In this document: positions 19,767 to 44,950 of the stretch, piece after piece | Layout of the letters: every line of letters begins with the position of its first letter | Numbering within the stretch: the stretch's first letter is position 1 | DNA from: an uncultured Thermoleophilaceae bacterium | Lineage (GTDB): Bacteria; Actinomycetota; Thermoleophilia; Solirubrobacterales; Thermoleophilaceae | Length of the DNA stretch: 64,000 nt | Direction: 5' to 3' | Assembly (NCBI GenBank): GCA_963716215.1 | Contig: OY970298.1 | Coordinates: 3,508,416 to 3,572,415 of the forward strand | The notes under the pieces: generated by a model | Told to the model about the DNA's origin: nothing | What the model saw: only the letters and a program-made list of their open reading frames with translations | Database searches by the model: none | Made by a program: the position numbers and the translations under genes

Positions 19767-19790
19767 CTAGGCCCGGCCGGCCGGCGTCAC
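19767..19790. repeat. direct repeat copy 2 (CTAGgcCCGGCCGGCCGGCGTCAC)
   Basis: Encodes, on the minus strand, the last codons (VTPAGRA*) of the GT2 gene. Copy 1 would read VTPAGRS*. Confidence 0.8.
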
Positions 19791-28132: not shown

Positions 28133-30157
28133 CTAGGAGGCGCCGATGAGCTCGGATTCGGGCCGCCTGCGGGCCGCTTCTCCGCGCTCGGCCCCGGCCC
28201 GCAGCTGCCGCCGCCCGAGCAGGAACGCCAGCCCGTAGAGCACGGCCACGAGCACCACCAGCGCCCGGTAGCCCGTCAGCAGCGAGGCGTACTCGAGCAG
28301 GCCGCCGACCATCGCCCCGAGCAGGTTCGCCCCGAACGCCGTCGTCGACGAGCTGGTGTCGGCGAAGCGCTGCGAGAAGACCAGGTTGGCGAGGAAGATC
28401 GGCAGGAACGTGATCCCCGACGCGACGATGAAGCGCGGCACCGGCGCCAGCGCGAGCAGCGAGTCCGGAGCGACGAAGTAGGCAGGCACGAGCCCGGCCA
28501 GCAGGACCGCGTAGAGCACCTGCGGCCGCGGCAATCGCACGCGGCGCGCCGTCTCGACGGCGGCCAGCACGGTGATCAGGATGCCCGCGAACACCAGCGC
28601 GTTGACGAGCCAGGTGGTGCCGAACAGCAGCGCGAACTGCACGACGCTCTTGGTCTCGAGCAGCAGGAACGCCGCGCCCATGAAGAAGAGGTCGGCGTAG
28701 GCGAACATCGGGCGCAGGCGCCCGGCCGCGGCGCGGATCGCGACCACCGAGGCGAGCAGGATCGCCAGGATCGTGGCGAGGTAGAAGCCCGGGATGCCCG
28801 GCTCGCGCAGGTACGGGAACGGGTGGTCGTCGGTGGACGGCTCCGGGACGGGCGTGGTGGCGGTGGCCCAGCGCGTGTCGCATCGGAGCGAGGCGGGATT
28901 GCGGCTGGTCGTGAGCACCGCCAGCCGCCCCTCGCCCCCGAAGCTGTCCACGCACGGCGGCCGCCCGAACGCCTCGGCGAGCGTGTTGGCGTAGCGGTCG
29001 ATCAGCCACTGCTCGCGGTAGTAGTTGTACATCGCGAACACCCCGTTCGGAGTGAGGTGGTCGCGCACCGCTTCGATGGCCTGCTTCGTGAACAGGTAGC
29101 TCTCGAGCCGCAGCGACGACTGGCCGGCCACGAGCGTCAGCGAGTCCGGCAGGGCGAGCAGGATGCGGTCGTAGTGCTCGTCGGAGCGCTCCAGGAACGC
29201 GCGGCCGTCCGTGATGTGCACGTCCACGCGCGGATCGGAATAGGGCTTGTCGGGGTGCAGCTCGCGGCCGAGCTCGTACAACCGCCGGTCGATCTCGACC
29301 GCGTCCACGTGGCCGGCCCCCTGGGCGAGCGCGATCGCCACGTCGTTCCCGCTCCCGGCGCCGATGATGAGCACGTTGTCCTTGGGGACGCCGGGGGCGG
29401 TGCGCTCGTACGGGCGGGCGTAGAGCGGGTTGCGCGTGGACGGCAGGATCACCTGGTGCGGGATGCCGTTCACGCTGATCTCGGGGGGCGAGTCCGGCTC
29501 GTCCTCGTGGCGGTCGATGGTGACCTTGTAGTAGGGCGACCAGTGCGTGTCGGGCTGCACCGACTCCACGGCCAGGAGCGCCACGAGCGCCACGAGCGCC
29601 ACGCCACCGACGATCCGCAGCCGTCGGCCCAGCAGCACGGCGAAGATGACTGCCACGACCACCCCCCACGCCACCGGCGGCAGGCTCAGGAACGACAGGC
29701 CCGCGAAGGCGACCACGCCGAGCAGCGAGCCGAACAGGTCGAGCCGGTAGGCGTCGAGCGCCCGGAAGCGGGCGAAGGTGCGCGCCACGCCCTCGCCGAT
29801 GAAGGCCATCGTCGCCGCGACGGCCACGAAGATCACGGTCAGCGTCAGCCATCGCGGCGGCCCCTCGCTCTGGAGCTCGCCGAAGTAGATGATCCCCTCG
29901 GCCGAGCGCCGGATCTCGACCGGGAACACGAGCACGAACACCACCAGCAGGACGAGCGCGACGGGCGCTAGCGGGAACAGGTCGCGCTCGCGGCTGGCGC
30001 GCAGGAACCCGAGTCCGATCCCGAGGAACGACCCCAGCAGGACGAAGTTCGAGAAGTACGACAGGTAGACGATGTTCGAGCCCGTCCAGCGGATCAGCGC
30101 CAGCTCGACGAAGAGCATGAGGAAGCTGAGGAGGACTAGCCGGCGCTTGTCTGACAT
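28133..30157 (-). CDS. polytopic membrane protein with central spermidine-synthase-fold (class I MTase-like) domain
   Basis: 674-aa ORF. N-terminal ~200 aa hold several TM helices (LLSFLMLFVELALIRW...). The centre has VLIIGAGSGNDVAIALA...VEIDRRLYELGRE...ITDGRAFLERSDEHYDRILLALPDS (SpeE-like GxGxG / D / DGR motifs). The C-terminal ~200 aa are again multi-TM. Confidence 0.75.
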   Translation of the reverse strand: MSDKRRLVLLSFLMLFVELALIRWTGSNIVYLSYFSNFVLLGSFLGIGLGFLRASRERDLFPLAPVALVLLVVFVLVFPVEIRRSAEGIIYFGELQSEGPPRWLTLTVIFVAVAATMAFIGEGVARTFARFRALDAYRLDLFGSLLGVVAFAGLSFLSLPPVAWGVVVAVIFAVLLGRRLRIVGGVALVALVALLAVESVQPDTHWSPYYKVTIDRHEDEPDSPPEISVNGIPHQVILPSTRNPLYARPYERTAPGVPKDNVLIIGAGSGNDVAIALAQGAGHVDAVEIDRRLYELGRELHPDKPYSDPRVDVHITDGRAFLERSDEHYDRILLALPDSLTLVAGQSSLRLESYLFTKQAIEAVRDHLTPNGVFAMYNYYREQWLIDRYANTLAEAFGRPPCVDSFGGEGRLAVLTTSRNPASLRCDTRWATATTPVPEPSTDDHPFPYLREPGIPGFYLATILAILLASVVAIRAAAGRLRPMFAYADLFFMGAAFLLLETKSVVQFALLFGTTWLVNALVFAGILITVLAAVETARRVRLPRPQVLYAVLLAGLVPAYFVAPDSLLALAPVPRFIVASGITFLPIFLANLVFSQRFADTSSSTTAFGANLLGAMVGGLLEYASLLTGYRALVVLVAVLYGLAFLLGRRQLRAGAERGEAARRRPESELIGAS

Positions 30158-30166
30158 GGGCTGGAG

Positions 30167-30180
30167 GGCCAGGACTGGCC
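30167..30180. promoter_or_regulatory. 6-2-6 inverted repeat GGCCAG-GA-CTGGCC in the divergent control region
   Basis: Lies in the predicted 38-nt 5' leader of the minus-strand SpeE-like gene. Could be an operator or an RNA hairpin. Confidence 0.3.
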
Positions 30181-30195
30181 TCGCGGGAGCGGGTC

Positions 30196-30201
30196 ACCCT
30201 A
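30196..30201 (-). promoter_or_regulatory. -10 box candidate TAGGGT(G) for gene 28133..30157
   Basis: Minus-strand TAGGGTG, 38 nt upstream of ATG 30157. Mirror image of the plus-strand box at 30228. Confidence 0.3.
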
Positions 30202-30227
30202 CCGATGCCGCCTTCAGGCGACGCCGC

Positions 30228-30233
30228 TAGGGT
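30228..30233 (+). promoter_or_regulatory. -10 box candidate TAGGGT(G), 8 nt upstream of ATG 30242 (leaderless)
   Basis: CTAGGGTG. The same heptamer occurs at 39734 and, on the minus strand, at 30196. Confidence 0.35.
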
Positions 30234-30241
30234 GCCCGCGC

Positions 30242-32608
30242 ATGGTGGAGCGCGCACCGGCCCGCGTACTGCTCGCGATTGGACTCGTTGCGGGGTGCAC
30301 CCTGGCCCTCCAAGTGCTGCTTACGCGGCTGTACGCGGCCGTGCTCTTCTACCACTTCGGGTTCCTCGCGATCTCGCTCGCGCTGCTCGGGACGGGCGCC
30401 GGCGCGATTGCCGTGTACGTACGGCCGGCCTGGTTCGAGCAGGTGTCGCTGAACGCGATGTTGGCGCGTGCCTCGATCGCGTTCGCGCTGCTGCTGGCGC
30501 TGGTCCCGCTGGTGCTCGTGAGGCTCGACTACTCGTTCGCCGACACGGTCACGCCAGGGTTCGTGGCGAACCTCGCCGCCGCGTGCGCGCTGTCGGCGAT
30601 CACGTTCCTGGCCGGCGGGATCGCGATCGCGCTAGCGATCAAGGCCTACGCCCGCAGGGCCGGGCGCGTATACGCGGCGGACCTCGCGGGGGCGGCGATC
30701 GGCGCGTTCGTGGCCGTGCCGTTCATGTGGAGCGTGCCGGTGCCGACGCTGCTGGTGGGGCTCGGCGTGCCGGCGGCGCTGGCCGCTTGGCTGGTGGCGG
30801 ACCCCCGCCGGCCGGAGCGCCGGATGGCCCTGGGCGCTGCGCTCGTGGCGGTCGCTGTGGTCGTGCTCTCCGAGACGACCGCGGCCACGCACGTCAAGCC
30901 GTTCACGCGCGTGTCGGGGGCCGAGCCGGTGTCGGACCGCTGGACGCCGCTGAACCGGGTCGTCGGCTATCCGCCGCCGAACGGCCGGGGCTCGCTGGCC
31001 TACGTGTTCTACGACTCCATCTACGCCCCCGCGATGGTGCGCCGGCCCGGAGAGCCGATGCCGGACTGGGAGCCGCTGCGCCTGGGTCCGCAGAGCATCG
31101 GCTACGCGCTGACCGGCCCGGGTAGCGCCCTGGTGATCGGCGGAGGCGGCGGTCGCGACATCCTCAACGCGCTCTCGTCGCGTCAGCGCCAGGTGGACGT
31201 GATCGAGCTCAACGAGGCGATCCGCGAGGCGGTCGACGAGGACCTGCGTCCCTGGACGGGGGCGCCGTACAGCCTCCCGGGCGTCGACGTGACGGTCGGC
31301 GACGGGCGCTCGACCCTGGCCGCCAGCGACGAGCGCTACGACCAGGTGCACATCGGCTTCACCGACACCCTGAGCGCCAACTCGGCCCAGGCGTTCGCGC
31401 TCACCGAGTCCAACCTGTACACGCTCGAGGCCTTCGACGAGTACCTCGACCACCTCGCCCCCGGCGGCGTGCTGAACGTCTCCCGCCTGCGGCGGCTGGT
31501 CGGCGACGAGGCGCTGCGGGCGACGGTGCTCACGCTGGAGGCGCTCCGCCGCCACGGCGTCGAGAACCCGTCGCGCAACGTCGTGGTGATCCTGGGCGAG
31601 GACTTCTTCGACGGCGAGTTCGGCACGGTGCTCGCTCGCATGGAGCCGTTCACGCCGAGCGAGCTGGCCCTGGTGCGGCGACTCGCGGACGAGCGCGGCC
31701 TCGGCGTGGCCTACGCGCCGGGTGGGCCATACCGCAAGGAGTGGGCCGGCCTGGGTACCGCGTCGAGCCCGCTCGAGTTCTGCCGCTCGTACCGCCTCGA
31801 CGTCTGCCCGCCGACCGACGACAAGCCCTTCTTCTTCAACATGCGACGGCTGTCGGACGTGGGCTCGTCGGAGGCCGACGGCTACTTCTACTCGATCGAT
31901 CCGGTGCTGGTCCTGCTCGCCACGCTGCTCGTGCTCGTGGTGCTCTCGGTGTTCGCCTTCCTGCTGCCGCTGCTGTTGGTGCGCGGCCCGCGCCGCCCGC
32001 CGGCCCGCTCGCTGGTGCTGTTCGCGGCGATCGGCCTCGGGTTCCTGGTACTCGAGGTGTCGCTGGTGCAGCGCTTCGTGCTGTTTCTCGGCTTCCCGAC
32101 CTACGCGCTCTCCGTCGTCCTGTTCGCACTGCTCCTGTTCGCGGGGCTGGGGGCGTTCCTGAGCGCCCGGTGGACCCGGCCGCGGCACGCGCTCACGCTC
32201 ACGCTCTCGCTCGCGCTGGCGCTGATCCTGGCCGCGGCCTTCGCCCTCGAGCCGCTGCTCGACGCGCTGATCGGGTTGCCCTTCGGGCTGCGCGTGGCCA
32301 CCGCGATCGCGGTGCTCGCCCCGTTCGGGCTCACGCTCGGCACCGCGATGCCGGTCGGCCTCGCCCGCATCGAGGAGCTGCATCCGGGCGCCACGCCGTT
32401 CGCCTGGGGGCTGAACGGCATCATGTCGGTCGTCGCCTCGGTGCTGGCCGTGGCGGTGGCGATCTCGTTCGGGTTCAGGGCCACCACGCTCGTCGCATTC
32501 GCCTGCTACGCCGTGGCGCTCGGCGACGTAGTGCTCGGCCGCTGGCCGGGCACGGCCGAGGTCGAGGAGCGCGCCCCAGTGGCGGGCCTCGAGCCGGCGC
32601 GCCCGTAG
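30242..32608 (+). CDS. polytopic membrane protein with central spermidine-synthase-fold domain (paralog of 28133..30157)
   Basis: 788-aa ORF with a multi-TM N-terminus. The centre has ALVIGGGGGRDILNAL...VIELNEAIREAV...VGDGRSTLAASDERYDQVHIGFTDT. C-terminal multi-TM region (LGFLVLEVSLVQRF...GLNGIMSVVASVLAV). Confidence 0.75.
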   Translation: MVERAPARVLLAIGLVAGCTLALQVLLTRLYAAVLFYHFGFLAISLALLGTGAGAIAVYVRPAWFEQVSLNAMLARASIAFALLLALVPLVLVRLDYSFADTVTPGFVANLAAACALSAITFLAGGIAIALAIKAYARRAGRVYAADLAGAAIGAFVAVPFMWSVPVPTLLVGLGVPAALAAWLVADPRRPERRMALGAALVAVAVVVLSETTAATHVKPFTRVSGAEPVSDRWTPLNRVVGYPPPNGRGSLAYVFYDSIYAPAMVRRPGEPMPDWEPLRLGPQSIGYALTGPGSALVIGGGGGRDILNALSSRQRQVDVIELNEAIREAVDEDLRPWTGAPYSLPGVDVTVGDGRSTLAASDERYDQVHIGFTDTLSANSAQAFALTESNLYTLEAFDEYLDHLAPGGVLNVSRLRRLVGDEALRATVLTLEALRRHGVENPSRNVVVILGEDFFDGEFGTVLARMEPFTPSELALVRRLADERGLGVAYAPGGPYRKEWAGLGTASSPLEFCRSYRLDVCPPTDDKPFFFNMRRLSDVGSSEADGYFYSIDPVLVLLATLLVLVVLSVFAFLLPLLLVRGPRRPPARSLVLFAAIGLGFLVLEVSLVQRFVLFLGFPTYALSVVLFALLLFAGLGAFLSARWTRPRHALTLTLSLALALILAAAFALEPLLDALIGLPFGLRVATAIAVLAPFGLTLGTAMPVGLARIEELHPGATPFAWGLNGIMSVVASVLAVAVAISFGFRATTLVAFACYAVALGDVVLGRWPGTAEVEERAPVAGLEPARP

Positions 32609-32618: not shown

Positions 32619-34568
32619 ATGTCACCGGTCGCGCACCACGTCGTGCTCGGGCTCGCGATCGCGGCTCTGGGCGGCGCCGGGCTGCGCCTCGCGTCGCTGG
32701 CGGCCCCCAGGGGGCCGGAGCGCGCGGTGGCCGCCGTGGTCATCGCCGCGTCGATCGCGGCACTCGAGGCGCTTGCGCTCGGCCTCGTGAGGCTGGGTAC
32801 GAACACCGCGGCGCTCGCCGGCGCCGCCGCGCTCACGTGGGTGCTGGCGCGCACCCTCCTGCCGGCCCCGGCCTCACCGCCGGGGAGCGAGCTGGCGGCG
32901 GCCTGGCGCGCGGCCTCGCCCGGCCGCCGGGTGGCGCTGGGCGCGGTCGCGGGCGTGTGGCTGGCCTGGGCGGTGTGGCTGCTGCGCTATCCGGCGCTCG
33001 GCATCGACACGGTGGCCTACCACCTGACCGACGTCGTCGCCTGGGTGGGCGACGGCAGCCCGGGCGCGATCGAGCCGCTGTTCCCCAACGTGCCGGTCGG
33101 CAACTACCCGCTCACCAACGAGGTGCTGCTGGCCTGGGGCACCGGGATAGCGCGGAGCTTCGTGTTCGTCGGCCTCTGGGCGCCGGCGATGATGGCGCTG
33201 CTCGTGGTGGCCGGGTGGGGCGCGCTGCGCGCCGTGCGCGTCCCGGTGGGCGCCGCCGCGGCGGCGGTCGCGGCCCTCTGCGTGCTGCCCGTGCTCACGC
33301 ACTACCAGCAGAACGGCGCGAACACCGACATCCCCGCGTTCGCCTGGCTCGTGAGCGCCGCGTTCTTGTCGCTGGCGTCGGCACGGCGCCCGGCGCTGAT
33401 CGCGCCGGCCCTACTCGCCGCCGCGCTCGCCGTCGGCACGAAGACGACGACGCTCCCGCTGGCCCTGCTGGTGCTGGTGCTCGCGCTGGTGGGAGCCCGG
33501 GGGGAGCTGCGCCGGCTAGCGTGGCCGCTGGCGCTGGCGGGCGCCGCGGCGGTCGCGATCGGCGGCTACTGGTACCTGCGCAACCTGGTCGACCACGGCT
33601 CGCCCTTCTGGCCCTTCGTCGAGACCCCCTGGAGCGACCCGCTGCCGAAGGAGATCGGGCCAGAGCGGGGCGTGAACGCCAGCTTCCTCGACCACCCGCG
33701 CTTCACGCTCGAGCGGGTCGGCGACGAGTGGCTCGACCTGTTCGGCGGCGGCTTCTTCCTGCTGGCCGCGGCGTTCGTGGCGCCGCTGCTGGCTCGCGAC
33801 CGGCGCGTGACGGCCGCGGCGGTCGTGACGGCGGTCTCCGTGCTGATCTGGATGAACGCGCCGTTCACAGGCGCCTCGGTGCGTGAGTACGAGGTGGCCA
33901 CGGCCTCGACGGTCCGCTACCTGATCCCCGCGCTGGGCGCGGCCGTCTTCACGCTGGCGCTGGCGGCCACCTCGGCGAGCCTGGCGGCGCGCCGGTTCGC
34001 GGTGCTCTCGCTCGGGGCGGGGTTCGTGGTGAACCTGGTGCAGACCGCCGACCTCGGCTTCCCGAGCGTGCCGCGGGCGTGGGTGCCGCTCGCCGGGGCC
34101 GCGGTCGGCGCCGCCGTCGCCGCACTGGCCGGGCGGGTGACGGCGCGCCCGCCCACGCTGCCCGCCGCAGCGCGGACGCTGCTCACGGCGCTCGCGTGCG
34201 CCGCTGTGGGCGCGCTCACCGCCATCGGGGCCGCCGGCTTCGTGGAGCGCCATGCGCAGACGGCGGACCTGTACGGCACGGACACGATCCGCTGGTTCAC
34301 CGAGCAGCCGGAGTTCGACGACGGCGACGACCCGATCTGGGCGGCGCCCGTCAATCTGGCGCCGCTGGGCGGCGACCGGCTCCAGCACGAGTTCCGCTGG
34401 ATCGAGGACGACGCGCCCTGCTCGCTGGTGCGGGCGCGAGCCCGGGCGAGCTGGGTGATCGTGATCATGTTCCCGCCCGACGGGAGGCTGCTGTCGCCGA
34501 GCGGCCGCTGCCTCGAGAACCAGCGCCCGGCCCACAAGGGCGCCGGCTTCAGCGTCTACAGGGGCTGA
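32619..34568 (+). CDS. unrecognised ~650-aa polytopic GT-C-like membrane protein, paralog 1
   Basis: 649-aa intact ORF with ~12 TM segments. Motifs conserved across the paralogs: LEALALGLV, GIDTVAYHL, NEVLLAW, HYQQNGANTDIPAFAWL, GTKTTTLPL, GGYWYLRNLVDHGSPFWP, WMNAPFTG, GDRLQHEF. Soluble C-terminal domain with a Cys pair, ending GAGFSVYRG. Confidence 0.7.
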   Translation: MSPVAHHVVLGLAIAALGGAGLRLASLAAPRGPERAVAAVVIAASIAALEALALGLVRLGTNTAALAGAAALTWVLARTLLPAPASPPGSELAAAWRAASPGRRVALGAVAGVWLAWAVWLLRYPALGIDTVAYHLTDVVAWVGDGSPGAIEPLFPNVPVGNYPLTNEVLLAWGTGIARSFVFVGLWAPAMMALLVVAGWGALRAVRVPVGAAAAAVAALCVLPVLTHYQQNGANTDIPAFAWLVSAAFLSLASARRPALIAPALLAAALAVGTKTTTLPLALLVLVLALVGARGELRRLAWPLALAGAAAVAIGGYWYLRNLVDHGSPFWPFVETPWSDPLPKEIGPERGVNASFLDHPRFTLERVGDEWLDLFGGGFFLLAAAFVAPLLARDRRVTAAAVVTAVSVLIWMNAPFTGASVREYEVATASTVRYLIPALGAAVFTLALAATSASLAARRFAVLSLGAGFVVNLVQTADLGFPSVPRAWVPLAGAAVGAAVAALAGRVTARPPTLPAAARTLLTALACAAVGALTAIGAAGFVERHAQTADLYGTDTIRWFTEQPEFDDGDDPIWAAPVNLAPLGGDRLQHEFRWIEDDAPCSLVRARARASWVIVIMFPPDGRLLSPSGRCLENQRPAHKGAGFSVYRG

Positions 34569-34576
34569 CCTGACGA

Positions 34577-36521
34577 ATGTCGAGCTTCGTCGAAAACGCG
34601 GTGCTGGTCCTGTCGGTGGCGGCGCTGGCGGCCGCCGGGGTGCGAGCGGCCTCCCAGCTCGCCCCGGCCGGGCTGGAGCGCGCAGTCACGGCGGCCACCT
34701 TCGCCACCGCTGCGGCCGGGCTCGAGGCGCTCGCGCTGGGGCTGGTGGGGCTCGGGGGCGACACGGTCCCGCTCGCGCTGGCCGCCGCCGCCACCTGGGC
34801 GCTCGCCCTGGCCGTGTTCCCCGCGCCGCGCGTCCCGCTGCTCGCCGAGGTGAGCGGCGCGTGGAGGGAGGCCCCGCCCGCCGCACGTGCCCTCGTGGCC
34901 GCCGTCGCCGGTGCTGGCACCGCGTGGGCGGCCTGGCTCGTGCACGTGCCGGCGCTCGGGTACGACAGCGTCAACTACCACCTGCCCGAAGCCGTCATCT
35001 GGGTGCGCGACGGCAACCCCGGCGCGGTCATCCCGGGGATCCTCGACTCCGTCACCTACCTGCCGCTGATGAGCGAGGTGCTGCTCGCCTGGGGAGTGGG
35101 CATCTCCCGCAGCCTCGTGCCGGCCTCGCTGCTGGCGCCCGCCTCGATGCTGCTGCTGGCCGTGTCGGGCTGGCTGGGGCTGCGCACACTCCGTGTCGGG
35201 CGCGTGGCGACGGCGGTGGCGGTGGGCACGCTCTGCGCGGCGCCGATGGTCACGCACTACCAGATGAACGGCGCCTACAACGACCTCCCGGCGCTGTCCT
35301 GGCTGGTCGCGGCCGGCGCGCTCGCCGCGGCCTCGCGGCGCAACCCCGCCATGCTGGCTCCGGCGCTGCTGGCCGCGGCGCTCGCGGCCGGCACCAAGAC
35401 GACCGCGCTGCCGCTGTCGCTGTTCGTGCTGGTGCTGGCGGCGTGGCCGCATCGGCGCCGGCTGCGCCCGCTGGCGCTGCCGCTGGCGCTCGCGGGCGGC
35501 GCGGCGCTGGTGGTCGGCGGGTTCTGGTACGCCCGCGACTTCGTGGTGCACGGCTCGCCGTTCTGGCCGGACGTTGCCGCCCCGTGGGGCGACGCCACGC
35601 CGGTCGAGTCGCCGAGCTTCCTCGACCGGCCGCGCGAGACCATCGACCGCTTCCTCGACGACTACCTCGAGCTGTTCGGTGGCGGCCTGCTGGCGATCGG
35701 TGGCGCGCTGGCGGTGCCCTTCGCCACCCGCGACCGCGCCGTGTGGGTGGCCGGCGCCGCGACCGCGGTCTCCTTCCTGCTGTGGCTCAACGCGCCCGCC
35801 ACCGGAGCGGCCGAGGGCGGCTCGGTGGTGGGCACGCTGTCGACCGTCCGCTACGTGCTGCCCGCGCTGGCGGCCGCGACCGTCACGCTGGCCCTGGCCA
35901 CGCGCAACACGCGGCCTGGCGGGCCGGGCCGCCGGGCTGATCCTGGCGGCGGCGCTGGTGATCAACGTGCTGCAGACGCGCGCGCTCGGCTATCCCAGCG
36001 TGCCGGGCGCTCACGTGCTGGCGCTGGGCGCGCTGCTCGGCGCGGGCGCCGCCCTTGCGGCCGGGGCGCTGTCGGCGCGCCTGCCGGCCGTGCCCCGCTG
36101 GGCCGTCGCGGCTGCCGGCGTTGCGGTGCTGGCCGCCGCGGCCGGTGCGCTCGCCGTGGGCACGAGCGGGTACGTCGAGCGTCACGCCCGCGCCAACGAG
36201 CACACCGTCTACCCCTACGTGGGGATGGTGAGCTGGCTGGCGGAGCAGCCGCTCTACCGCAGCGGCGACGACCCGGTGGCGATCGTGCCGATCCCGAACG
36301 GCGTCGTCGTGGGCGACCGGCTGCGGCACCGCATCGAGGTGGTGCCGTTCGAGGAGCCGTGCGACGCGGTGCGCGCGCGGCTGCGGGATCACTGGGTGCT
36401 GTTGAACTTCCTCGACGTGGTGCGCGACTTCACCGCCGCCCGCTGCCTGGAGGACGTGAAGCCGACCTTCGAGGGCTCGGGCTTCCGCGTCTACCGGCCC
36501 TCGGGCGCCTCGCCGCCGTAG
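34577..36521 (+). pseudogene. unrecognised GT-C-like membrane protein, paralog 2, frame disrupted near 35911-35916
   Basis: The N-terminal frame (track ORF 34577...) is homologous to paralog 1 up to ...TVTLALATRNTR. Homology then continues in the frame of track ORF 35574..36521 (LAGRAAGLILAAALVINVLQTRALGYPSVP...GSGFRVYRPSGASPP*). This is a 1-nt indel or an error. Confidence 0.7.
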
Positions 36522-38459
36522 ACCTCGAACTCGCCGCCCTGCCACCGCGGCGTGAGCTTGGCGTAGCACGGCGGGTTGGGCCAGGAGCGGTTGACGATCA
36601 CCCACCCCTTGCGCAGGTGCTCCCGCACCTCGCGGCACGTGTCGAGCGCGTCGACCAGGTCGATCCGGTGCTGGAGCCGGTCGCCCGCCAGCGCCGCGTT
36701 CATCACGACCGAGAAGGCGACCGGGCTGTCGCCGTCCACCCACTCGGGCTGCGAGAGGAACCAGTCGAACATCGCCGGGGCCGCCGAGGCGAACTTGTTG
36801 GACTCGGAGACGTTGGCCACGTTGAAGCGCTGGACGAACCCGGACGCGGCCACGGACAGCAGCAGCCCGACGACCACGATCGCCGGCACGGCGGCAAGGC
36901 GCGCCAGGCGCGGCCAGTCGCCGCGTCGCGGCAGGAGCGCCGCGACGCCGACAAGGGCCGCCCCGCCCAGCGCACCGGCCAGGACGATCGCCACCGGCGG
37001 CGCGCTCGGGTAGCCGAGGTCGAACAGCTGCCAGGCGGTGAACCCGAGCGCCAGGGTCAGCGCCCCCACGGCATACGGCCGACCGTACGGGCGCTCCCGC
37101 GCGGCCAGGCAGATCGTGAGGGCCGCGACCGTGAAGGTCGGCAGCAGGTAGCGCACCGTGGTCAGCGCGCTGGAGCCCGCGTCGCCCTCGGAGATCCCGG
37201 TGAAGGGCGCGTTCATCCACAGCAGCAGGGACAGGACGGTGACCGCGGTCGAGGCGAGCACCGCCCGGGTCCGGGTCGCGAGCGGCGCGAGCAGGGCGCC
37301 GCGCGATCAGCAGGTAGCCCCCGGCGAACGGCTTGGCCCAGTCGCTGAGCAGGAAGTCGGCCGTCCGGCGGGGGGCGTCGAAGAAGCGGGTGTAGACCTG
37401 CTCCACCACGTCACCCGACGGCGCGATCACCTCGGGCACCGGGTCGCCCCACGGCGTGGCCACGAACGGCCACAGCGGCGACCCGTGCAGCACCAGGTTG
37501 CGCAGGTACCAGTAGCCGCCCACCGCCAGCCCGACGCCGCATGCCACGGCGAGCGGGCGCCACAGGGCGCCCAGCCGGTGGCGGTGGACCACCGCCGCGA
37601 TCGCCAGCACCAGCAGCCCCAGCGGCAGCGTCGTGGTCTTGGTGCCGATGGCCAGGGCCGCGGCGAGCACCACGCCGGTCAGAAGCTTGGGCCGGCTGAC
37701 CGACGCGGCGCAGAGGGCTGCCGCGCAAACGAGCCACGCCAGCGCCGGGAGGTCGGTGTGGGCGCCGTTCTTCTGCCAGTGCGTGAGCGGCGGCATCAGG
37801 CAGAGGGTCAGCACGGCAAGCCCGGCCGGCAGGCGCGGCACGCGCAGGGTCCGCAGGCCGGTCCAGCCGGCCGTGGCCAGCAGCGCCAGCGTCACCGGCG
37901 CCCACACCATCACCGGCACGAAGCTGCGCGAGAGCGCGCTCGACCACTCCAGCAGCACCTCGTTCGTCACCGGGTACGCGCCGACCGGATAGCCGGGGAA
38001 CAGCCCGGAGACCGAACCCGGGCGGCCGTTGTGGATCCACTCGACCACCTCGGGGACGTGGTAGATCATGCTGTCCGCGCCGAGGATCGGATGGCGCACC
38101 AGCCAGACCGTCCAGACCAGCCAGGCGCCCGCGCCCGCCGCCAGCGCCACGCGCGGCGCGATCGGCGCGCTCGCCCACCAGCCGAGGAACTCCTCGCGCG
38201 CCGGGGTGCCCACGTCCGGAGCGAGCCTGCGCGCGACGAGCCAGGTGAGCACCGCGGCCAACGCGAGCGCGATCGTGCTCCCGCCCAGGCTGACGAGCCC
38301 GAGGCCCAACGCCTCCAGCGCCGCGAGCGCGGCGCCGAACACGGCGGTCGCCACCACTCGCGGCAGCCCGGCGGCACCCGTGAGCGTGGCCACCCGGAAG
38401 CCGGCGCCGGCCAGAGCGGCGACCGCGACGACGAACGTGATCTGGTGGATGACCGTCAA
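36491..38459 (-). pseudogene. unrecognised GT-C-like membrane protein, paralog 3, frame disrupted near 37298-37304
   Basis: TTG start at 38459 (TTGA overlap with the AT3 stop): (M)TVIHQITFVVAVAALAGAGFRVATL... is homologous to paralogs 1 and 2 up to ...FAGGYLLIA. It then continues in the frame of track ORF 36491..37261 (GALLAPLATRTRAVLASTAVTVLSLLLWMNAPFTG...GGEFEVYGG). Confidence 0.7.
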
Positions 38460-39643
38460 GCCGCGACCCGGGCGGGTCCGTCCGCCTTGTCCGGCGCGCG
38501 CCGACCGCCGCGGAAGTCCTTGAAGCGGAGGATCGGGCGCTCGACGACGTAGTAGCTGCCCGCGGCGCACAGCGTGGACACGACCAGCGCACACACCAGC
38601 AGCGGCACCCACGCGTAGTCGAGCTTCGGCGCCAGGACGCGGATGATCTCGAAGTGCCAGAGGTAGAGCCCGTAGGAGACCAGGCCGAGCCAGGCCAGCC
38701 ACCGCAGCCCGAGCACGCGGCGCGGCCAGCCACCGGCGCCCTCCCCGAACACGGCCGGGAGGATCAGGAACAGCGCCACGACGCCGCGCAGCACGTGCTG
38801 GGCCAGCAGCTGCTCGTCCGAGTAGACGGTGTGCTGAGGCGCGCTGGTGAGGACCGCGCCGAGCACCAGATAGGCGACGAGCGCGATCGCCCAGCAGGTC
38901 CCGGGCCGGTCGGTCACGAGCTGCGCGAGCCGGGGCGCGCGGGCGCGGTCCTGCCACGCCACGCTCAGCACCGCCAGCGCCATCCCGAGCGCGAACCAGT
39001 AGAGGTGCGTGGGCAGGCTGTTGCTCAACACCACGTCGTCGGTGACCGCGCGCAGCGTCACCGAGCCGAGCGCGATCAAGGCGAGCACCACGAGCTGCAC
39101 GCGCACCCGCACCGCCGCGTCGCGCCCCCTGGTCGCGTACGCGGTGGCGATGGCGAAGAACGGCAGCACGACGTAGAAGCTCGCCTCGATGCACAGCGTC
39201 CACGCCACCGGGATCCCCGTGAGCGTGGTGATCGGGTCGTAGATCTGCAGCAGCCCGTAGTAGCTCCACCAGTCGGGGCCCCAGAGCCCCACGAGCCCCG
39301 GGTAGATCGCCAGCACGGTGAGTGCGAGCCAGTAGGCGGGGATGATGCGCAGCACCCGCCGGCGCGCGTAGTCGCGCAGGCGTGGCTGCGACTTGTGGTG
39401 CAGCTGGGCGTTGAAGAACGGCCGGTACAGGAGGAAGCCCGAGAGCAGGAAGAACAGGCACACCCCCACGCTGAGGTTGCCGATCCAGGCGCCGTAGGCC
39501 TGCTCGCGCGTGTTGCCCGACAGCGACCCCACGTGTCCGAACAGGACTCCCAGTGCGGCCACCGCGCGCAGCGAGTCCATCAGCGGGAAGCGCGGGTTCC
39601 CAGGGGGCGGCGCGACGACCGGAGGCGCCGTGTGGGCGGACAT
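38456..39643 (-). CDS. acyltransferase family 3 (AT3) membrane O-acyltransferase
   Basis: 395-aa ORF with RFPLMDSLRAVAALGVLFGH, LLSGFLLYRPF, RRVLRIIPAYW and YGLYLWH. Confidence 0.85.
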   Translation of the reverse strand: MSAHTAPPVVAPPPGNPRFPLMDSLRAVAALGVLFGHVGSLSGNTREQAYGAWIGNLSVGVCLFFLLSGFLLYRPFFNAQLHHKSQPRLRDYARRRVLRIIPAYWLALTVLAIYPGLVGLWGPDWWSYYGLLQIYDPITTLTGIPVAWTLCIEASFYVVLPFFAIATAYATRGRDAAVRVRVQLVVLALIALGSVTLRAVTDDVVLSNSLPTHLYWFALGMALAVLSVAWQDRARAPRLAQLVTDRPGTCWAIALVAYLVLGAVLTSAPQHTVYSDEQLLAQHVLRGVVALFLILPAVFGEGAGGWPRRVLGLRWLAWLGLVSYGLYLWHFEIIRVLAPKLDYAWVPLLVCALVVSTLCAAGSYYVVERPILRFKDFRGGRRAPDKADGPARVAA

Positions 39644-39752: not shown

Positions 39753-42126
39753 ATGTCGATTTCGACCGACAGCCGCGTCGCGCGCCTGGCTGGAGCGCCG
39801 CGAGTACCTGGCCGCGACGGCGATCCTCGGCCTGATCACGTGCCTGTGGTTCTGGCCGCTGCTGATCGGCGAGCAGCTCGGGCAGAGCTTCATCCTGCAT
39901 CAGTTCGCACCGTGGCTGGGCGGCGTGGACCCCGCCTCGCTGCCGCGCCGCGGACCGTTCGTGGACGCGGCGGTGGCGTTCCACCCGTGGGCGGAGGTGG
40001 CGCGCGACCAGGTCCTCGCGGGCCACCTGCCGCTGTGGAACCCGTCGGAGTGGGCCGGCATGACGCTGGTGGGCAACATGCAGTCGGCGCTGTTCTTCCC
40101 GCCCAGCTGGCTGCTGATCGTGTTCCCGTTCGGCTACGGGTGGGGCGTCTTCTCCGCCGTCAAAGTGCTGCTGTCGGGGCTCGGGGCCTACGCCCTCGCG
40201 CGCGAGCTGGGAGTGGGCCGCGGCGGCGCGCTGGTCGCAGGTGCCGTGTACATGCTGTCCGCGCCGCTGATGCTGTGGCTGCAGTACCCGCTCGGCAGCG
40301 TCTTCGCGATCTTCCCGTGGCTGCTGTGGGCAACCACCCGACTCGCCAGGCGCCCCACACGGGCTTCGATCGCGGCCGTGGCGCTCACGACCGCCCTGAT
40401 GCTGTTCGCCGGGCACCCGGAGTCGGCGTTCATCGCGGTGTCGGCGATCGCCGTGTACCTGGTGGCGCTGGTTGCCTTCGACCACCGGGCGAACCCGGAG
40501 GGCTCACGCCCGCTGCGGATCGCCGTGCGGTGGGCGGCCGGCGGGCTGCTCGGCGCGGCGATCGCGGCCGTGGCCCTGATCCCGTTCCTGCTCGCGCTCG
40601 GCGACAGCGTCACCTGGGGCGAGCGCGGCAAGCTGATCCCGGCCGACGCCCCGTCGCTCGCCGACCTGCTGCAGTGGGCGATGCCGGGGCTGTTCGGGGA
40701 CGGTGAGCCGAACCTGTACGGCAGGTGGCCGTTCGGCTACTTCGGGCTGCCCGCGCTGATCCTGGCGTTCGTGGGGCTCGTCCGCTACCGCCGCGAGGCG
40801 GGTGCCCGTGCGCTGCTGGCGATGACGGCCGTCACGTTCCTGGCGATTTACCGCGTGCCCCCGGTGCGCTGGCTGCTGGAGGAGGTCCCGCCATGGGCGA
40901 ACACCTACCTGGGGCCCGAGCGGCTCTACTTCGTGATCGCGCTGGCGGGCGCCGTCGGCGCCGGCGCCGGCTTCCACGCGCTCGCCCACCGGCCCCTGCC
41001 GCTGCGCCGCGTCGTCGTGGTGACCGCCGCGGCGGCGCTCGTGATCGCGGTCGGCGCCGGGCTGGCCCAGGTGGCGGGCGACCTGGGCGCGCCCGCCTCG
41101 GTGAAGCGCGAGAGCATCGCCGTCACGGCGCTGCTGCTGCTTGTGACCGGCGGCCTGCTGGCGGCCGTCGGCCGGGTCCGTCCCGTGACGGCTGCGGCGG
41201 CGGCGCTGGCGGTGGCCGTGCTGAGCCTGGTCGGGATGCAGAACTTCAACCTCACCCTGCCCCCTGACGAGGCCTACCCGGCCACTCCGGCGGGGATCGC
41301 CCAGCTCCAAGACCAGCCGGGAACGTTCCGAGTCGGCGTGTTCCGCGCCAGCGGCGCCGAGCTGACGATGCCCGCGAACACGGCGGGCCTGTACGAGCTC
41401 GAGAGCATCGAGGGCTACGACTATCCGCTGTCGCGGCGGTGGTCCGACTTCCAGTCCGGCGTGCTCGGTTTCGGCGGCTCGGCCTTCCCGGAGCTGCGGA
41501 CCGCCCAGGAGCCGCCGCGCGGGCCCGCCCTGGCCGCGCTGCGGATGATGAACGTGCGGTACTACGTGGGCGCGCCCGGCACGCGCGCCGAGTCGCCGGA
41601 CTTCCAGACCGTCTACAGCGGGCGCGACAGCGTGGTGCTGCGTGACCGCCAGGCGCTGCCGCGCGCGTACGTGGCGCCGGTCGCGCGTCCGCTGTCGGAC
41701 GACGACGCCCTGGCGCTGCTCGAGCGGGGTGGGCTCGACCCGCGCCGCGAGGCGCTCGTGCCGGAGGGCGAGCAGGCGCCCGCCGGAGGCGCGTTCCGCG
41801 CCGCGCGCGTGGAGGTGCTCGCCCCCGACCACGTGCGGGTGCACGTGCCGCGCGGAGCGGCGGGCTGGCTGGTGCTGGCCAACGGGTACTCGCCGGACTG
41901 GAAGGCCGAGGTCGACGGGCGCGAGACCGAGCTGCGGCCGACCAACTTCGCCGCGATGGGCGTCCCGGTGGAGAGCGGGACCGAGGTCGTGGACTTCCGG
42001 CTCGACCGCACCGGGCTCTGGCTCGGCGCCGCGATCAGCCTGATCGCGCTTGCGTGCGCTGGGCTGCTCTTGGTGAGCGGCAGAGCGCGATCACGTCGAG
42101 GGCCTGCTCCAGACCCTCGGACCTGA
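39753..42126 (+). CDS. YfhO-family polytopic membrane glycosyltransferase, copy 1 (N-terminus uncertain; possible 1-nt frame disruption at ~39775-39795)
   Basis: Track ORF 39925..42126 matches the YfhO family (HPWAEVARDQVLAGHLPLWNPSEWAGMTLVGNMQSALFFP...). The same frame is open and paralog-conserved upstream to 39790 (LERREYLAATAILGLITCLWFWPLLIGEQLGQSF) with no ATG/GTG/TTG in it. The nearest ATG (39753, behind a -10 box) is in the -1 frame. Confidence 0.7.
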
Positions 42127-42823
42127 GCTCGAAGTCGTCCACCGTGATCGCCCCCGCGCCGGGGTGCGGGTGCTCGCGCTCGGTGGTTAGGCGCCGGTCG
42201 TAGAGTCGCTGGAGGACCGTGCGTGGGACGAACCGGCGCAGCCGCAGCGGGTCCTTGCGCAGCAGCGCGTCGAGCTTGAGGCGCTCACCGGAGACGAGCT
42301 CGAGATAGCGCTCCGACCCGAACAGCCCGTGCATCTCGACCCTCTCGAAGTACGGCTCGCAGGCCGCCCGCAGCTGGGTGTGGTCGTACTCGACGTAGTG
42401 GTACGGGTCGATGATCTCGTCGGGGCGGGCGAAGGTGAGCCGGTTGGGGGTCACGAAGATCGCGGTGCCCTCCGGTTCGAGCACTCGCGCGATCTCCTCG
42501 AGCACGCGCCGGTGGTCGGGCACGTGCTCGATCGACTGCACCGACAGCACCGCGGCGAAGCTGGCGTCGCCGAACGGGATCTCGCGCATGTCGGCCACGA
42601 CCGTCTCGCGCTGCTGTCCCGCGAGCGCTTCGGGGTCCAGGTCGAGCCCGACGCTCTCGCGCGGCGCCAGCTCGCTGAACGAGTGCCCCACGCCGCAGCC
42701 GAGGTCCAACACCCGGCCGTCCGGCAGCAGCGGCGCGCACAGCCGGTAGGCCGCCACGTGGCGCTGCCAGGTCGGGTTGAAGCCGCCGGCGGGGGTGGAT
42801 ACACGCTCGCCGGTGACCGTCAC
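42035..42823 (-). CDS. class I SAM-dependent methyltransferase
   Basis: 262-aa ORF with VLDLGCGVGHS motif I and SVQSIEHVPDH. GTGA overlaps the upstream GT2 stop. Confidence 0.85.
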   Translation of the reverse strand: MTVTGERVSTPAGGFNPTWQRHVAAYRLCAPLLPDGRVLDLGCGVGHSFSELAPRESVGLDLDPEALAGQQRETVVADMREIPFGDASFAAVLSVQSIEHVPDHRRVLEEIARVLEPEGTAIFVTPNRLTFARPDEIIDPYHYVEYDHTQLRAACEPYFERVEMHGLFGSERYLELVSGERLKLDALLRKDPLRLRRFVPRTVLQRLYDRRLTTEREHPHPGAGAITVDDFELRSEGLEQALDVIALCRSPRAAQRTQARSG

Positions 42824-43626
42824 GCCATGTACTTCCGCGACTTCAGCACCCCGCGGCGGTGCAGCACCAGCCGCGCCCCGGCCCAGAGGGTCTTCAGGCC
42901 GTACACGGTCGCCGGTCGCAGCCCGATCGAGGACGCGTCGTCGAAGTAGCGTGTGCGGGCCGGCACCTCCGCGATCCGGAAGCCAAAGTGCGATGCCTGC
43001 ATCAGCATCTCGGAGTCGAAGCTGAAGTCGAGCGCGTTGCGCAGGAACGGGACCTCCCGCAGCAGCCGGTTCGAGTAGGCGCGGTAGCCCGTGTGCAGCT
43101 CCGACAGGTGGGTGCCGAGGATGCGGTTCTCGATCGTGGTCAGGAAGCGGTTGGCCACGTACTTGTAGAGCGGCATCCCGCCCTCGCGGGCCATTCCCGG
43201 CTCGGCCAGCCGGGAGCCCAGCACCATGTCGGCCTCGCCGTCGAGGATCGGCTGGATCAGCCGCGGGATCAGCGACGGCTCGTACTGCCCGTCCGGGTGC
43301 AGCATCACCACGACCTCGGCATCGCGCTGAAGCGCCTGGAGGTAACAGGTCTTCTGGTTGCCGCCATAGCCGACGTTGTGGGGATGCCAGATCAGGTGGA
43401 TCGGCAGCCCGCGCGCGAGCTCGACGGTGTTGTCGGTCGACTTGTCGTCGACCAGGATGATCTCGTCCACCACCTCGCGCGGGATCGCGTTCACGGTGCG
43501 CTCGAGCGTGAGCGCGGCGTTGCGCGCCGGCATCACGACGATCACCTTCGCCTGCCGCTGGGCGGCGGTGGTGGCGCCGTCGACGTCGAGCGCGCGCTCG
43601 ACGTCCTCTTCTCGAACGTCAGCCAT
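42820..43626 (-). CDS. GT2-family glycosyltransferase (polyprenyl-phosphate sugar synthase-like, soluble type)
   Basis: 268-aa ORF with VVMPARNAALTLERTV...ILVDDKSTDNT...HPDGQYEP...GSR... motifs. Confidence 0.85.
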   Translation of the reverse strand: MADVREEDVERALDVDGATTAAQRQAKVIVVMPARNAALTLERTVNAIPREVVDEIILVDDKSTDNTVELARGLPIHLIWHPHNVGYGGNQKTCYLQALQRDAEVVVMLHPDGQYEPSLIPRLIQPILDGEADMVLGSRLAEPGMAREGGMPLYKYVANRFLTTIENRILGTHLSELHTGYRAYSNRLLREVPFLRNALDFSFDSEMLMQASHFGFRIAEVPARTRYFDDASSIGLRPATVYGLKTLWAGARLVLHRRGVLKSRKYMA

Positions 43627-43641: not shown

Positions 43642-43706
43642 GCCGCGTTCGCGCACCGGCGCGTCGCTTCCGCGGGTGACCCGGCGCCCGCCCGAGTGCC
43701 CGGCGG

Positions 43707-43712
43707 TAAGGT
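43707..43712 (+). promoter_or_regulatory. -10 box candidate TAAGGT, 8 nt upstream of ATG 43721 (leaderless)
   Basis: TAnnnT hexamer at the same spacing as the other operon heads. Confidence 0.35.
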
Positions 43713-43720
43713 CGCCCCGC

Positions 43721-44950
43721 ATGCTCGGCTTCGGGTCGCGACTCGGCATCCTGGCGGCGGGCGGAGCGGCAGCGCGAGGGCTCTACGTCGCCCGGACGTC
43801 GTCGTCGCCCACAGAGTTCCCGGTCGGCGGCGACGCGGCCTTCTACCAGTTCACCGCCGAGCACCTGGTGGCCGGGGACGGGTACATCTCGCCGGTCAAG
43901 CTGCTGCTGGCCGGAGAGATCGAGCCGACCGCCGAGCACCCGCCCCTGTTCTCGATCCTCCTGGCCGTCCTGATCAGGCTCGGGGCGAACAGCACGCCGG
44001 CCCAGCGCGCGCTGATCGCCTGCGCCGCCGGGGCCATCGTCGTCGTGGGCATCGGCCTGCTCGGGCGGCGCGTCGGCGGCGCCCGGGTGGGCCTGATCGC
44101 CGCCGCCCTCGCGGCGTTCTACCCGACGATCGTGACCGCCCAGGCCTCGCTGGAGAGCGAGGCGCTCTACGGCGTCTGGCTGGTGCTGGCGATGCTGCTC
44201 GCCTACCGCCTCTACGACCGGCGCGACATGAGCTCCGCGCTCGCGCTCGGGGCCGTGATCGGCCTGGCGACGCTGACCCGCAACGAGGCACTGTTGCTGC
44301 TGCCGCTGATGGCGCTGCCGGTGGCGATCCGCGGCGGCGCGGGACGCTGGGGACGCCTGGCCGTCACCTGCGCCGTGGCGCTGCTGTTCGTGGCGCCGTG
44401 GATCGGGCGCAACTGGATCGAGCTAGACCGGCCGCTGATGTCCACCAACTACGGGCAGGGCCTGGCGGGCAGCAACTGCCACCCCACCTACTACGGGGCC
44501 GACATCGGGGCGTTCTCGATCCTCTGCTTCCAGCTGGATCCGCAACTCGGGGAGGTCGAGTGGTCCGAGGACATGGCGCGGCAGGGCCTCGACTACGCCC
44601 GCGACCACGCCGGGCGCGTGCCCGTGGTGATGCTGCTGCGGGGCCTGCGCGGATGGGGCTTCTACGACCCCGGATCCCAGCTCCGCATCTACAACATGTC
44701 CAAGCGCGTGCAGCACGTGGGCATCGCGCTGTGGTACCCGCTGCTGGTGCTCGCGGCCATCGGTCTGGTGCTGCTGCGCCGGCGTGGTGAGCCGATCTCG
44801 CCGCTGCTCGCTCCGCTGCTGGTGACCACCCTGGTCCTGATCGTCTACTCGGGCGTCACGCGCTACCGGCACGGCACCGAGCTGGCGATGGTCGTGATGG
44901 CCGCCGTTGCCCTCGACGCGCTCGTCTCCAGGGTTCGGGCCGCCAGCTGA
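43721..44950 (+). CDS. ArnT/PMT-like GT-C glycosyltransferase, type B copy 3
   Basis: ATG 43721 (MLGFGSRLGILAAGGAAARGLYV...). Motifs GGDAAFYQFTAEHLVAGDGY, GLATLTRNEALLLLPLM, PWIGRNWIELDRPLMSTN. Confidence 0.8.
   Translation: MLGFGSRLGILAAGGAAARGLYVARTSSSPTEFPVGGDAAFYQFTAEHLVAGDGYISPVKLLLAGEIEPTAEHPPLFSILLAVLIRLGANSTPAQRALIACAAGAIVVVGIGLLGRRVGGARVGLIAAALAAFYPTIVTAQASLESEALYGVWLVLAMLLAYRLYDRRDMSSALALGAVIGLATLTRNEALLLLPLMALPVAIRGGAGRWGRLAVTCAVALLFVAPWIGRNWIELDRPLMSTNYGQGLAGSNCHPTYYGADIGAFSILCFQLDPQLGEVEWSEDMARQGLDYARDHAGRVPVVMLLRGLRGWGFYDPGSQLRIYNMSKRVQHVGIALWYPLLVLAAIGLVLLRRRGEPISPLLAPLLVTTLVLIVYSGVTRYRHGTELAMVVMAAVALDALVSRVRAAS

Follow-up and report, generated by a model that had tools for sequence, protein, structure and literature searches.

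The 64,000-nucleotide (nt) stretch of DNA analyzed here, referred to as the window, originates from an uncultured Thermoleophilaceae bacterium and corresponds to positions 3,508,416-3,572,415 of contig OY970298.1 (assembly GCA_963716215.1), a single contig of 4.18 Mb; the G+C content of the window is 70-77%. It harbors three genes for large membrane proteins of a single family, termed paralogs A, B, and C. Paralog A (32619-34568, plus strand) is a single open frame of 649 amino acids with 16 predicted membrane passes and a C-terminal domain located outside the membrane, whereas B (34577-36521, plus strand) and C (36491-38459, minus strand) correspond to conceptual proteins of about 648 and 655 amino acids, respectively, each with one change of reading frame. 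A tblastn search of the region with A detected exactly these three copies. B matches A in two frames, covering A residues 80-437 (54% identity) and 470-648 (38%), and C does so as well, covering A residues 4-382 (53%) and 385-649 (37%). No further copies were found in the whole 4.18-Mb genome using a profile built from 95 homologs. These data bear out an initial annotation, made from the DNA sequence alone, which had proposed three paralogs at this locus, two of them with a frame disruption; the disruptions are +1 changes of frame, that of B lying near position 35910 and that of C near 37302.

The three genes are tightly packed. A starts 10 nt after the end of a gene (30242-32608, plus strand) for a membrane-embedded spermidine synthase-like (SpeE-like) protein that gives a weak match to the Pfam family Spermine_synth, and B starts 8 nt after A, so that the SpeE-like gene, A, and B are probably part of one operon. 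B and C are convergent, and their 3' ends overlap by 31 nt (36491-36521). A tail-to-tail overlap of B and C, of about 25 nt, is also retained in the orthologous loci L015 and L017. Upstream of C lies a gene for an Acyl_transf_3 membrane acyltransferase (38456-39643, minus strand; 98.9 bits in Pfam). Reading of the sequence places the TTG start codon of C over the TGA stop codon of this gene (TTGA, 38456-38459), an overlap that suggests translational coupling of the acyltransferase with C.

A series of sequence blocks is common to all three proteins, namely, LEAL.LGLV, G.D(T/S)..YH, EVLL.W, H(Y/W)Q.NGA..D(I/L)PA..WL, GTKTT.LPL, GG(Y/F)WY.R(N/D).V.HGSP(F/L)WP, W(M/L)NAP(F/A)TG, TVRY(L/V).P, GDRL(Q/R)H, and G.(G/E)F.VY. 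The motif list of the initial annotation is thus present in each copy, apart from a detail of the third block, which had been given as NEVLL but reads SEVLL in B. In the alignment of the 95 homologs, D130, Y134, H135, E168, K275, W318, R321, P329, W331, P332, R433, and C601 (numbering of A) are invariant, and G273 (95/95), H326 (94/95), D237 (93/95), and C631 (93/95) are retained in all or almost all sequences. All invariant residues are also present in B and C despite their frame breaks. Given this invariance across 95 homologs, the motifs, as judged from sequence, are not due to chance.

The family is not recognized by existing sequence models, as had been claimed initially. A, B, and C produced no relevant Pfam match at E≤1; matches of protein pieces to MFS_1 and NarI-type families were below threshold and were dismissed as low-complexity noise from transmembrane segments. 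The best NCBIfam match was LIC_10190_fam (NF047510), with 25.3 bits for A (residues 215-335) and 21.6 bits for B, as compared to a cut-off of 100, and was limited to residues ~195-335; a trace match to WsfD was also below threshold. An hmmsearch of PDB sequences with the profile of the 95-sequence family gave no match below an E value of 0.7. Homologs that carry a name in their source are all termed "hypothetical protein," and most are unnamed. DUF8201 (PF26626) appeared as a weak precomputed match on 8 of 120 listed homologs, being marked as "weak" on homolog P0005, and a literature search for PF26626 or DUF8201 found no mention of either. Characterized glycosyltransferase families were likewise not matched with confidence. 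The gathering score of the PMT_2/ArnT-like family (PF13231; GT39/GT83) was reached neither by A, B, and C nor by the homolog P0059, which scored 23.0 bits against a threshold of 26.1. A, B, and C have no Pfam or NCBIfam match to STT3/oligosaccharyltransferases (GT66), and a WWDYG-type motif is absent from the alignment of their C-terminal domains; they also have no match to GT-C_AftD and related Pfam families, for which a 1419-amino-acid protein of the same window scores 274 bits, or to YfhO (PF09586), to which the window's own YfhO-like genes do match. Using hhalign, the family profile was compared with the PMT_2-like proteins of the window and with the ArnT/PMT-like proteins that had been called types A and B in the initial annotation. 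The probabilities were below 5%, in agreement with the clear difference noted at the time, but the family and the PMT_2-like proteins can be aligned at the D...Y(H) and W..RN motifs. Together with the sub-threshold scores for PMT_2, LIC_10190_fam, and WsfD, this alignment provides weak sequence links to GT-C families. A phmmer search with the window's PMT_2-like protein, as a bridge to the ArnT numbering, gave no PDB matches.

In contrast to the sequence searches, structure prediction provides an assignment. The AlphaFold2 model of A, based on the 95-row alignment, has a pLDDT of 93.6 and a pTM of 0.94, and all PDB matches obtained with Foldseek at a probability of at least 0.94 are GT-C enzymes (E values of 2e-4 to 5e-2): STT3 from yeast and human, ArnT, ALG12, ALG3, AftD, AftA, Pmt1/Pmt4, and PglB. 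The top match is STT3 (8age, E value of 2e-4), and ArnT (5f15) has an E value of 5e-4 and TM-scores of 0.40/0.46, whereas the probability of MFS-type transporters does not exceed 0.2. Two of the features that define the GT-C superfamily, at least 8 transmembrane helices with a fold match and a conserved acidic residue in a long, predicted outside loop near the N-terminal part of the transmembrane domain, are present in the family. According to the model, the family clearly has a GT-C fold, as the initial annotation had suspected.

The membrane topology was derived from the helices of the model and from the loop charges, counted as K+R minus D+E per loop over the 95 homologs. The charges alternate without exception, with values of +0.7 to +2.8 for inside loops and -3.0 to -0.1 for outside loops: residues 27-36, 78-104, 204-211, 253-259, 292-301, 391-397, 449-456, and 506-517 form the positive loops, and residues 56-63, 124-181 (-3.0), 222-237, 327-359, 413-422, and 478-488 the neutral or negative ones. 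This alternation predicts that the N-terminus is outside, that the protein passes the membrane 16 times (counting the hairpin 258-292), and that the C-terminal domain is outside. Relative to canonical GT-C enzymes, the N-terminus is extended by three helices (residues 1-80, with conserved R23, R35, and E50) and by a short helix on the cytoplasmic side.

Three elements emerge as candidate parts of an active site. The first long outside loop, reminiscent of the EL1 loop of GT-C enzymes (residues 124-181; 32988-33161, plus strand), contains two short helices in the model (129-145 and 166-178) and is the candidate catalytic loop, in which D130, Y134, H135, P164, and E168 are invariant. The conserved Asp had been proposed to lie outside the cytoplasm, and the loop charge of -3.0 within a strictly alternating pattern predicts just that and not a cytoplasmic placement. 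The GTKTT sequence (residues 273-277; 33435-33449, plus strand), with invariant G273 and K275, forms the tip of the hairpin 258-292. Since both loops flanking this hairpin are positive, the tip is predicted to point outward, and it is a candidate for phosphate contact, with a putative likeness to the phosphate-binding motif of ArnT-like enzymes that the initial annotation had suggested. The WY.RN...HGSPFWP block (residues 318-332; 33570-33614, plus strand) extends from the outer end of a transmembrane helix into the beginning of the second long outside loop. The invariant polar residues, namely, D130/Y134/H135/E168, D237, K275, W318/Y319/R321, the H326-G-S-P-x-W-P segment, and R433/Y434, are all placed at the outer face by the predicted topology, as in a GT-C active site directed away from the cytoplasm.

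The C-terminal α/β domain of A (residues 540-649; 34236-34565, plus strand) contains the Cys pair C601 (34419-34421) and C631 (34509-34511). The two Cys and G585 show no variation among 54 sequences, which were taken from the window and from public loci. The spacing of 25-31 residues between the two Cys that had been indicated initially holds for A (29) and B (27) but not for C (22), and the soluble tail is shorter than the ~150 amino acids first proposed, since model and alignment give about 110-117. The domain alone is predicted to fold as a small α/β unit (pLDDT of 91), for which there was no significant fold match in the PDB (best E value of 0.46). A disulfide bond between the two Cys is plausible because the domain is predicted to be outside.

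A search of 1.84 billion proteins with the family profile retrieved 445 representatives (of clusters at 50% identity) at E≤1e-30 and 1,885 at E≤1e-10. The 57 loci retrieved from species-representative genomes all derive from metagenome-assembled genomes (MAGs). They are labeled as Thermoleophilaceae, Solirubrobacteraceae, Solirubrobacterales, Paraconexibacteraceae, Conexibacter, Baekduia, or Candidatus Siliceabacter, and the remaining ones as unclassified Thermoleophilia, Actinomycetes, or Actinomycetota. Within the same order, 20 of 151 genomes carried the family, covering 3 of the order's 5 families, and it was missing from all 242 genomes sampled in the other orders of the class. In a sample of the phylum, it was detected in one genus of another family (two genomes, one of them a weak match), and one more weak match (E value of ~1e-22) was obtained. 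Among the genomes sampled, the family is thus patchy and found almost solely in one order of Thermoleophilia-type Actinomycetota, with one to four copies per genome. An example with four copies is the 2.84-Mb chromosome of a Thermoleophilaceae MAG (L016, OY970162.1:179914-197833), where three intact tandem copies are located between PMT_2-like and AftD-like genes, with a methyltransferase/GT2/methyltransferase cassette just upstream and a fourth copy elsewhere on OY970162.1. Another two tandem full-length copies (E values of 1e-173 and 1e-187; G338:C10:27698-31554) are located in a genome that belongs to another taxonomic family, and apparently to another class, of the phylum. The remaining lineages sampled outside the order are devoid of such genes, and the two copies may reflect horizontal transfer. 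A maximum-likelihood tree places A, B, and C in separate clades with supports of 100/99, 100/100, and 100/100, which identifies them as old paralogs and not recent duplicates; each clade holds intact metagenomic members.

The +1 frame-change sites were located at 35905-35917 in B (plus strand) by a frame hidden Markov model (HMM), profile match, and orthologue alignment, and at 37297-37305 in C (minus strand) by the frame HMM and orthologue alignment. The HMM, based on G+C at third codon positions (GC3), switches frame at 35911 in B and at 37294 in C, with no stop codon nearby, and the profile match to B shifts frame at 35910-35917. DNA alignment with the orthologs of two related MAGs (L015 and L017; 83-85% nucleotide identity) revealed a single extra base per gene (B, near 35910; C, near 37302); apart from these, the two genes are free of internal indels over ~1.95 kb (1,968 nt in the case of C). 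When the conceptual frame is followed, B has a dN/dS of 0.23 upstream of its break and 0.31 downstream, and C has values of 0.15-0.19 on either side of its own; these low values indicate that both halves were kept under purifying selection. An intact B ortholog with 82-83% amino acid identity is present in a MAG of the same genus, and intact C orthologs have 86-88% amino acid identity. Frame-broken copies in the 57 public loci amount to 11 of 35 in MFD-named records as compared to 0 of 42 in other assemblies, and MFD MAGs are Nanopore-only assemblies with one round of Medaka polishing (PMC12313526). The window genome is a single-contig, MAG-like assembly with a completeness of 93.9%, whose nearest relatives are MFD MAGs, and about 111 similar frame switches without a stop codon were estimated genome-wide, corresponding to ~1 per 38 kb. 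Both breaks are therefore likely to be assembly artefacts, i.e., residual Nanopore indel errors, and on that assumption, the organism itself probably has intact versions of all three genes. Programmed frameshifting was rejected as an explanation in view of the private positions of the breaks, the differing breaks in related MAGs, and the existence of intact orthologs.

In the gene neighborhood, a gene for a 268-amino-acid GT2 protein (42820-43626, minus strand; Pfam Glycos_transf_2) encodes a PpgS/AglJ/DPM1-like polyprenyl-phosphate-sugar synthase, present as a single copy in the window genome. Its best NCBIfam matches, all below cut-off, are AglJ, PpgS (the mycobacterial polyprenyl-phospho-GalNAc synthase), and dolichyl-phosphate hexose transferase. 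Directly downstream is a gene for a class I S-adenosylmethionine (SAM)-dependent methyltransferase (42035-42823, minus strand; Pfam Methyltransf_11/23), and the second methyltransferase of the cassette is encoded at 47250-48134 (minus strand; Pfam Methyltransf_23). An ortholog of the GT2 gene (65-97% identity) is by far the commonest neighbor of the family, occurring within 8 kb in 29 of the 57 loci, and a methyltransferase ortholog does so in 22. In about 24 loci, a methyltransferase-GT2-methyltransferase cassette is located directly beside, between, or around the family genes. Elsewhere, its order is the ortholog of the 47250-48134 gene, GT2, and the ortholog of the 42035-42823 gene: the former is directly upstream of the GT2 ortholog in other genomes, often adjoining a family gene, and the latter adjoins the GT2 ortholog in most loci. 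In the window genome, the cassette is split by an insertion comprising PMT_2-like and YfhO-like genes (43676-47274). The cassette recurs across Solirubrobacterales-type MAGs, as seen at L024 (9898-12282), L031, L044, L061, and L067. In the sample of the order, GT2 and the family co-occur in 13 genomes and are within 10 kb of each other in 11 of these, a linkage that is not independent evidence as this sample shares its species set with the 57 loci. Other neighbors are less frequent. Acyltransferase-3 genes are near the family in about 15 of the 57 loci, and a homolog of the spermidine synthase-like protein is within 8 kb in 9. Membrane spermidine synthase-like proteins stand beside the family in the window (28133-32608) and at L018, L023, L036, L041, L054, and L068.

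Taken together, the data are best read as a new family-level branch of GT-C transferases that depend on lipid-phosphate-linked sugars. It is quite probable that A, B, and C are three ancient paralogs that transfer a lipid-linked sugar to an envelope acceptor, with the frame breaks being artefacts. According to an established paradigm, a GT2 synthase makes a polyprenyl-phosphate sugar, which reaches the other side of the membrane by means of a flippase and is transferred there by a GT-C enzyme (PMC11127046). A lipid-phosphate-sugar donor is proposed for the present family because of its conserved adjacency to the PpgS/AglJ/DPM1-like GT2. This cytoplasmic enzyme, flanked by the two SAM-dependent methyltransferases, would load a sugar onto polyprenyl phosphate; the lipid-linked sugar would be flipped across the membrane, and the family protein would then transfer it at the outer face to a wall glycopolymer or a protein. 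The two methyltransferases around the synthase suggest that the lipid-linked sugar is methylated, and the transferred sugar is possibly a methylated one. In this scheme, D130, Y134, H135, and E168 of the first outside loop would form the catalytic, acceptor-activating site, K275, R321, and R433 would contact the donor phosphate, and the C-terminal domain, with its putatively disulfide-bonded Cys pair, would help to hold the acceptor. The three paralogs probably differ in acceptor position or linkage.

A number of observations weigh against this interpretation. The TM-scores to solved GT-C enzymes are just 0.3-0.46 with root-mean-square deviations above 10 Å, the thresholds of the Pfam, NCBIfam, and PDB sequence models are not attained, and the EL1-like loop follows helix 4, whereas its equivalent in canonical GT-C enzymes follows helix 1. 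Seven of the 20 family-positive genomes have no close GT2 ortholog, and GT2 is more widespread than the family (46 versus 20 of 151 genomes), so that the pairing is not obligatory; furthermore, no flippase gene was found in the conserved cassette at the 57 loci. The two frame breaks lie within 3.9 kb, which is denser than the genome-wide estimate, and the Nanopore-MAG origin of the window genome is itself something that we infer. The low TM-scores and the lack of sequence matches point to a separate family within GT-C, but they could also indicate a GT-C-like scaffold without glycosyltransferase function, such as a glycan polymerase or ligase, a flippase or recycler of the lipid carrier, or a structural protein of the envelope. 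The N-terminal extension of three helices, in which R23, R35, and E50 are conserved, and the cassette without a flippase are compatible with such a role, which is nevertheless very improbable, since the significant structural neighbors are solely GT-C transferases, with transporters of the MFS type far below them, the invariant acidic and basic residues are all on the outer side, where GT-C enzymes have their active sites, and the linkage to a polyprenyl-phosphate-sugar synthase is tight. Protein glycosylation in the manner of an oligosaccharyltransferase (an analogue of AglB/STT3/PglB or PMT) instead of glycan decoration is a somewhat better contender but also improbable. STT3 is the top Foldseek match, the domain outside the membrane is C-terminal as in PglB and STT3, the partner GT2 is closest to the archaeal AglJ, and the methyltransferases of the cassette recall the archaeal Agl pathway; in N-glycosylation of Haloferax, AglP methylates a lipid-linked sugar. 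However, there are no Pfam matches to STT3 or PMT and no WWDYG-type motif, ArnT gives a higher TM-score than STT3, the C-terminal domain has just ~110 amino acids and no fold match to oligosaccharyltransferase domains, and the island is centered on wall-polymer genes (LytR-CpsA-Psr [LCP] ligase, Wzx-like, Wzy_C, and AftD-like). A bolder version of the GT-C transferase reading, which is possible but doubtful, holds that the family and the cassette form an undescribed extracytoplasmic system in which a sugar is methylated on polyprenyl phosphate, or just before loading, and is transferred by a new GT-C family at the level of CAZy. Known GT-C enzymes would then offer no counterpart to the extra N-terminal helices or to the C-terminal domain with its disulfide bond, and since the cassette is without a flippase, a role of the N-terminal extension in donor presentation or flipping is conceivable.

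The frame breaks also permit a different reading, in which B and C are genuine, very recent pseudogenes and one of three redundant paralogs stays intact per lineage, with decay setting in for the others. The breaks are present in the sequence as given, their density exceeds that of the ~111 candidates in 4.18 Mb, and sister MAGs also hold broken family copies, with a different paralog affected in each: in L017/G010, A is in four pieces and B and C are intact, and in L015, A and B have one break each and C is intact. This explanation is nonetheless unlikely. Each gene carries one private single-base insertion and no further indel with respect to orthologs of 83-85% identity, the sequence downstream of the breaks has a dN/dS (0.17-0.31) as low as that of the upstream part, and all invariant residues are retained in B and C. 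Moreover, broken copies are limited to the Nanopore-only MFD MAGs, in which unrelated neighboring genes are shredded as well; at L033, this applies to every gene of the region. The assembly-artefact reading of the breaks thus carries a more general lesson, namely, that genes with a single-base frame break in Nanopore-only MAGs ought not to be equated with pseudogenes unless there is read support.

Comparison with known systems helps to place the proposed GT-C transferase, whose presumed mode of action resembles that of ArnT/Gtr*/PMT_2-type enzymes but which falls short of the thresholds of PMT_2, STT3, AftD, YfhO, and LIC_10190 alike. With ArnT/PMT_2 proteins (GT83/GT39; PF13231; 5F15/5EZM), the family shares the polytopic GT-C fold with its best TM-score (0.40/0.46), an Asp-x3-Tyr in a long outside loop, a W..RN sequence that follows a later helix, a C-terminal α/β domain on the outside, and the pairing with a polyprenyl-phosphate-sugar GT2. 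It differs in that the catalytic-type loop comes after helix 4, following three extra N-terminal helices, in its signatures GTKTT, HGSPFWP, NAPFTG, and TVRY, in a Cys-pair domain without fold match, and in having 16 predicted passes as compared to the 13 of the ArnT structure. A GT2 synthase beside a GT-C enzyme is also the arrangement of GtrA/GtrB/Gtr*, CsbB-GtcA-YfhO, the GT136 system (PMC11127046), and PpgS with the GT-C protein Rv3779. As with the serotype-specific Gtr* proteins, several paralogous GT-Cs may share one donor. Unlike these three-component systems, the conserved cassette of the family lacks a flippase of the GtrA/GtcA/MATE type, its GT-C protein is outside all of their GT-C families, and its GT2 is flanked by two SAM-dependent methyltransferases. 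We know of no Gtr/CsbB/GT136/PpgS-type system with paired methyltransferases around the GT2. STT3/AglB/PglB proteins (GT66) give the lowest Foldseek E values (2e-4 to 1e-3) and have in common with the family an outside C-terminal domain and an AglJ-like partner GT2, but the TM-score is ~0.33, the family has no STT3 Pfam match and neither WWDYG nor DxD motifs, and its C-terminal domain is far smaller and of unrelated fold. DUF8201 and LIC_10190, both of uncharacterized function, are the only catalogued families with any sequence signal, and the score to the latter (25 versus a cut-off of 100) sets the family apart. The N-terminal three-helix extension, the new Cys-pair domain, and the methyltransferase-GT2-methyltransferase partner cassette are distinctive, whereas the fold class and the general chemistry are to be expected for such a gene island.

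The family, of which no member was seen with an informative annotation, would add a sequence family to the GT-C transferases, and it comes with a defined set of partners, the PpgS/AglJ-like GT2 and two methyltransferases. Among soil Actinomycetota, Thermoleophilia/Solirubrobacterales are abundant, and the genomes examined are, with few exceptions, metagenome assembled. To our knowledge, their envelope chemistry has been little studied. If characterized, the family could form the basis of a new CAZy family and bring to light a decoration of this lineage's cell wall with methylated sugar.

The window as a whole is one large envelope-glycan island. It encodes two S-adenosylhomocysteine (SAH) hydrolases, sugar-nucleotide enzymes, an LCP ligase, Wzx-like proteins, GT4-GT2 fusions, and Wzy_C, as well as acyltransferase-3, PMT_2-, YfhO-, and AftD-like GT-C proteins, two GT2 proteins, and several methyltransferases. 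The LytR_cpsA_psr (LCP) ligase is encoded at 7178-8629 (minus strand), Wzx-like proteins at 10401-11681 and 15265-16683, and Wzy_C at 58623-60260. These three types of genes imply a wall-linked glycopolymer as the product of the island, and this polymer is a plausible candidate acceptor for the GT-C-like enzymes. The SAH hydrolase genes are adjacent paralogs (298-1572 and 1603-3027, both on the minus strand), of which one is full length (524 bits) and the other is shorter and more divergent, and the pair fits a high methylation load caused by the many methyltransferases of the island. At 53399-57828 (minus strand), long coding stretches of high GC3 occur in three successive frames (53402-54991, 54992-55762, and 55763-58138) and have no Pfam match; they represent either several unknown genes or one large gene split by frame errors. 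Further same-strand frame switches that involve no stop codon are found in a GT2 gene at ~19650-20463 (minus strand) and in an unannotated gene on the minus strand that changes frame near 12391. The Pfam match of the GT2 gene is confined to profile positions 1-128 of 168, and near 19951 the gene goes on in a different frame. Both cases are consistent with residual assembly indel errors.

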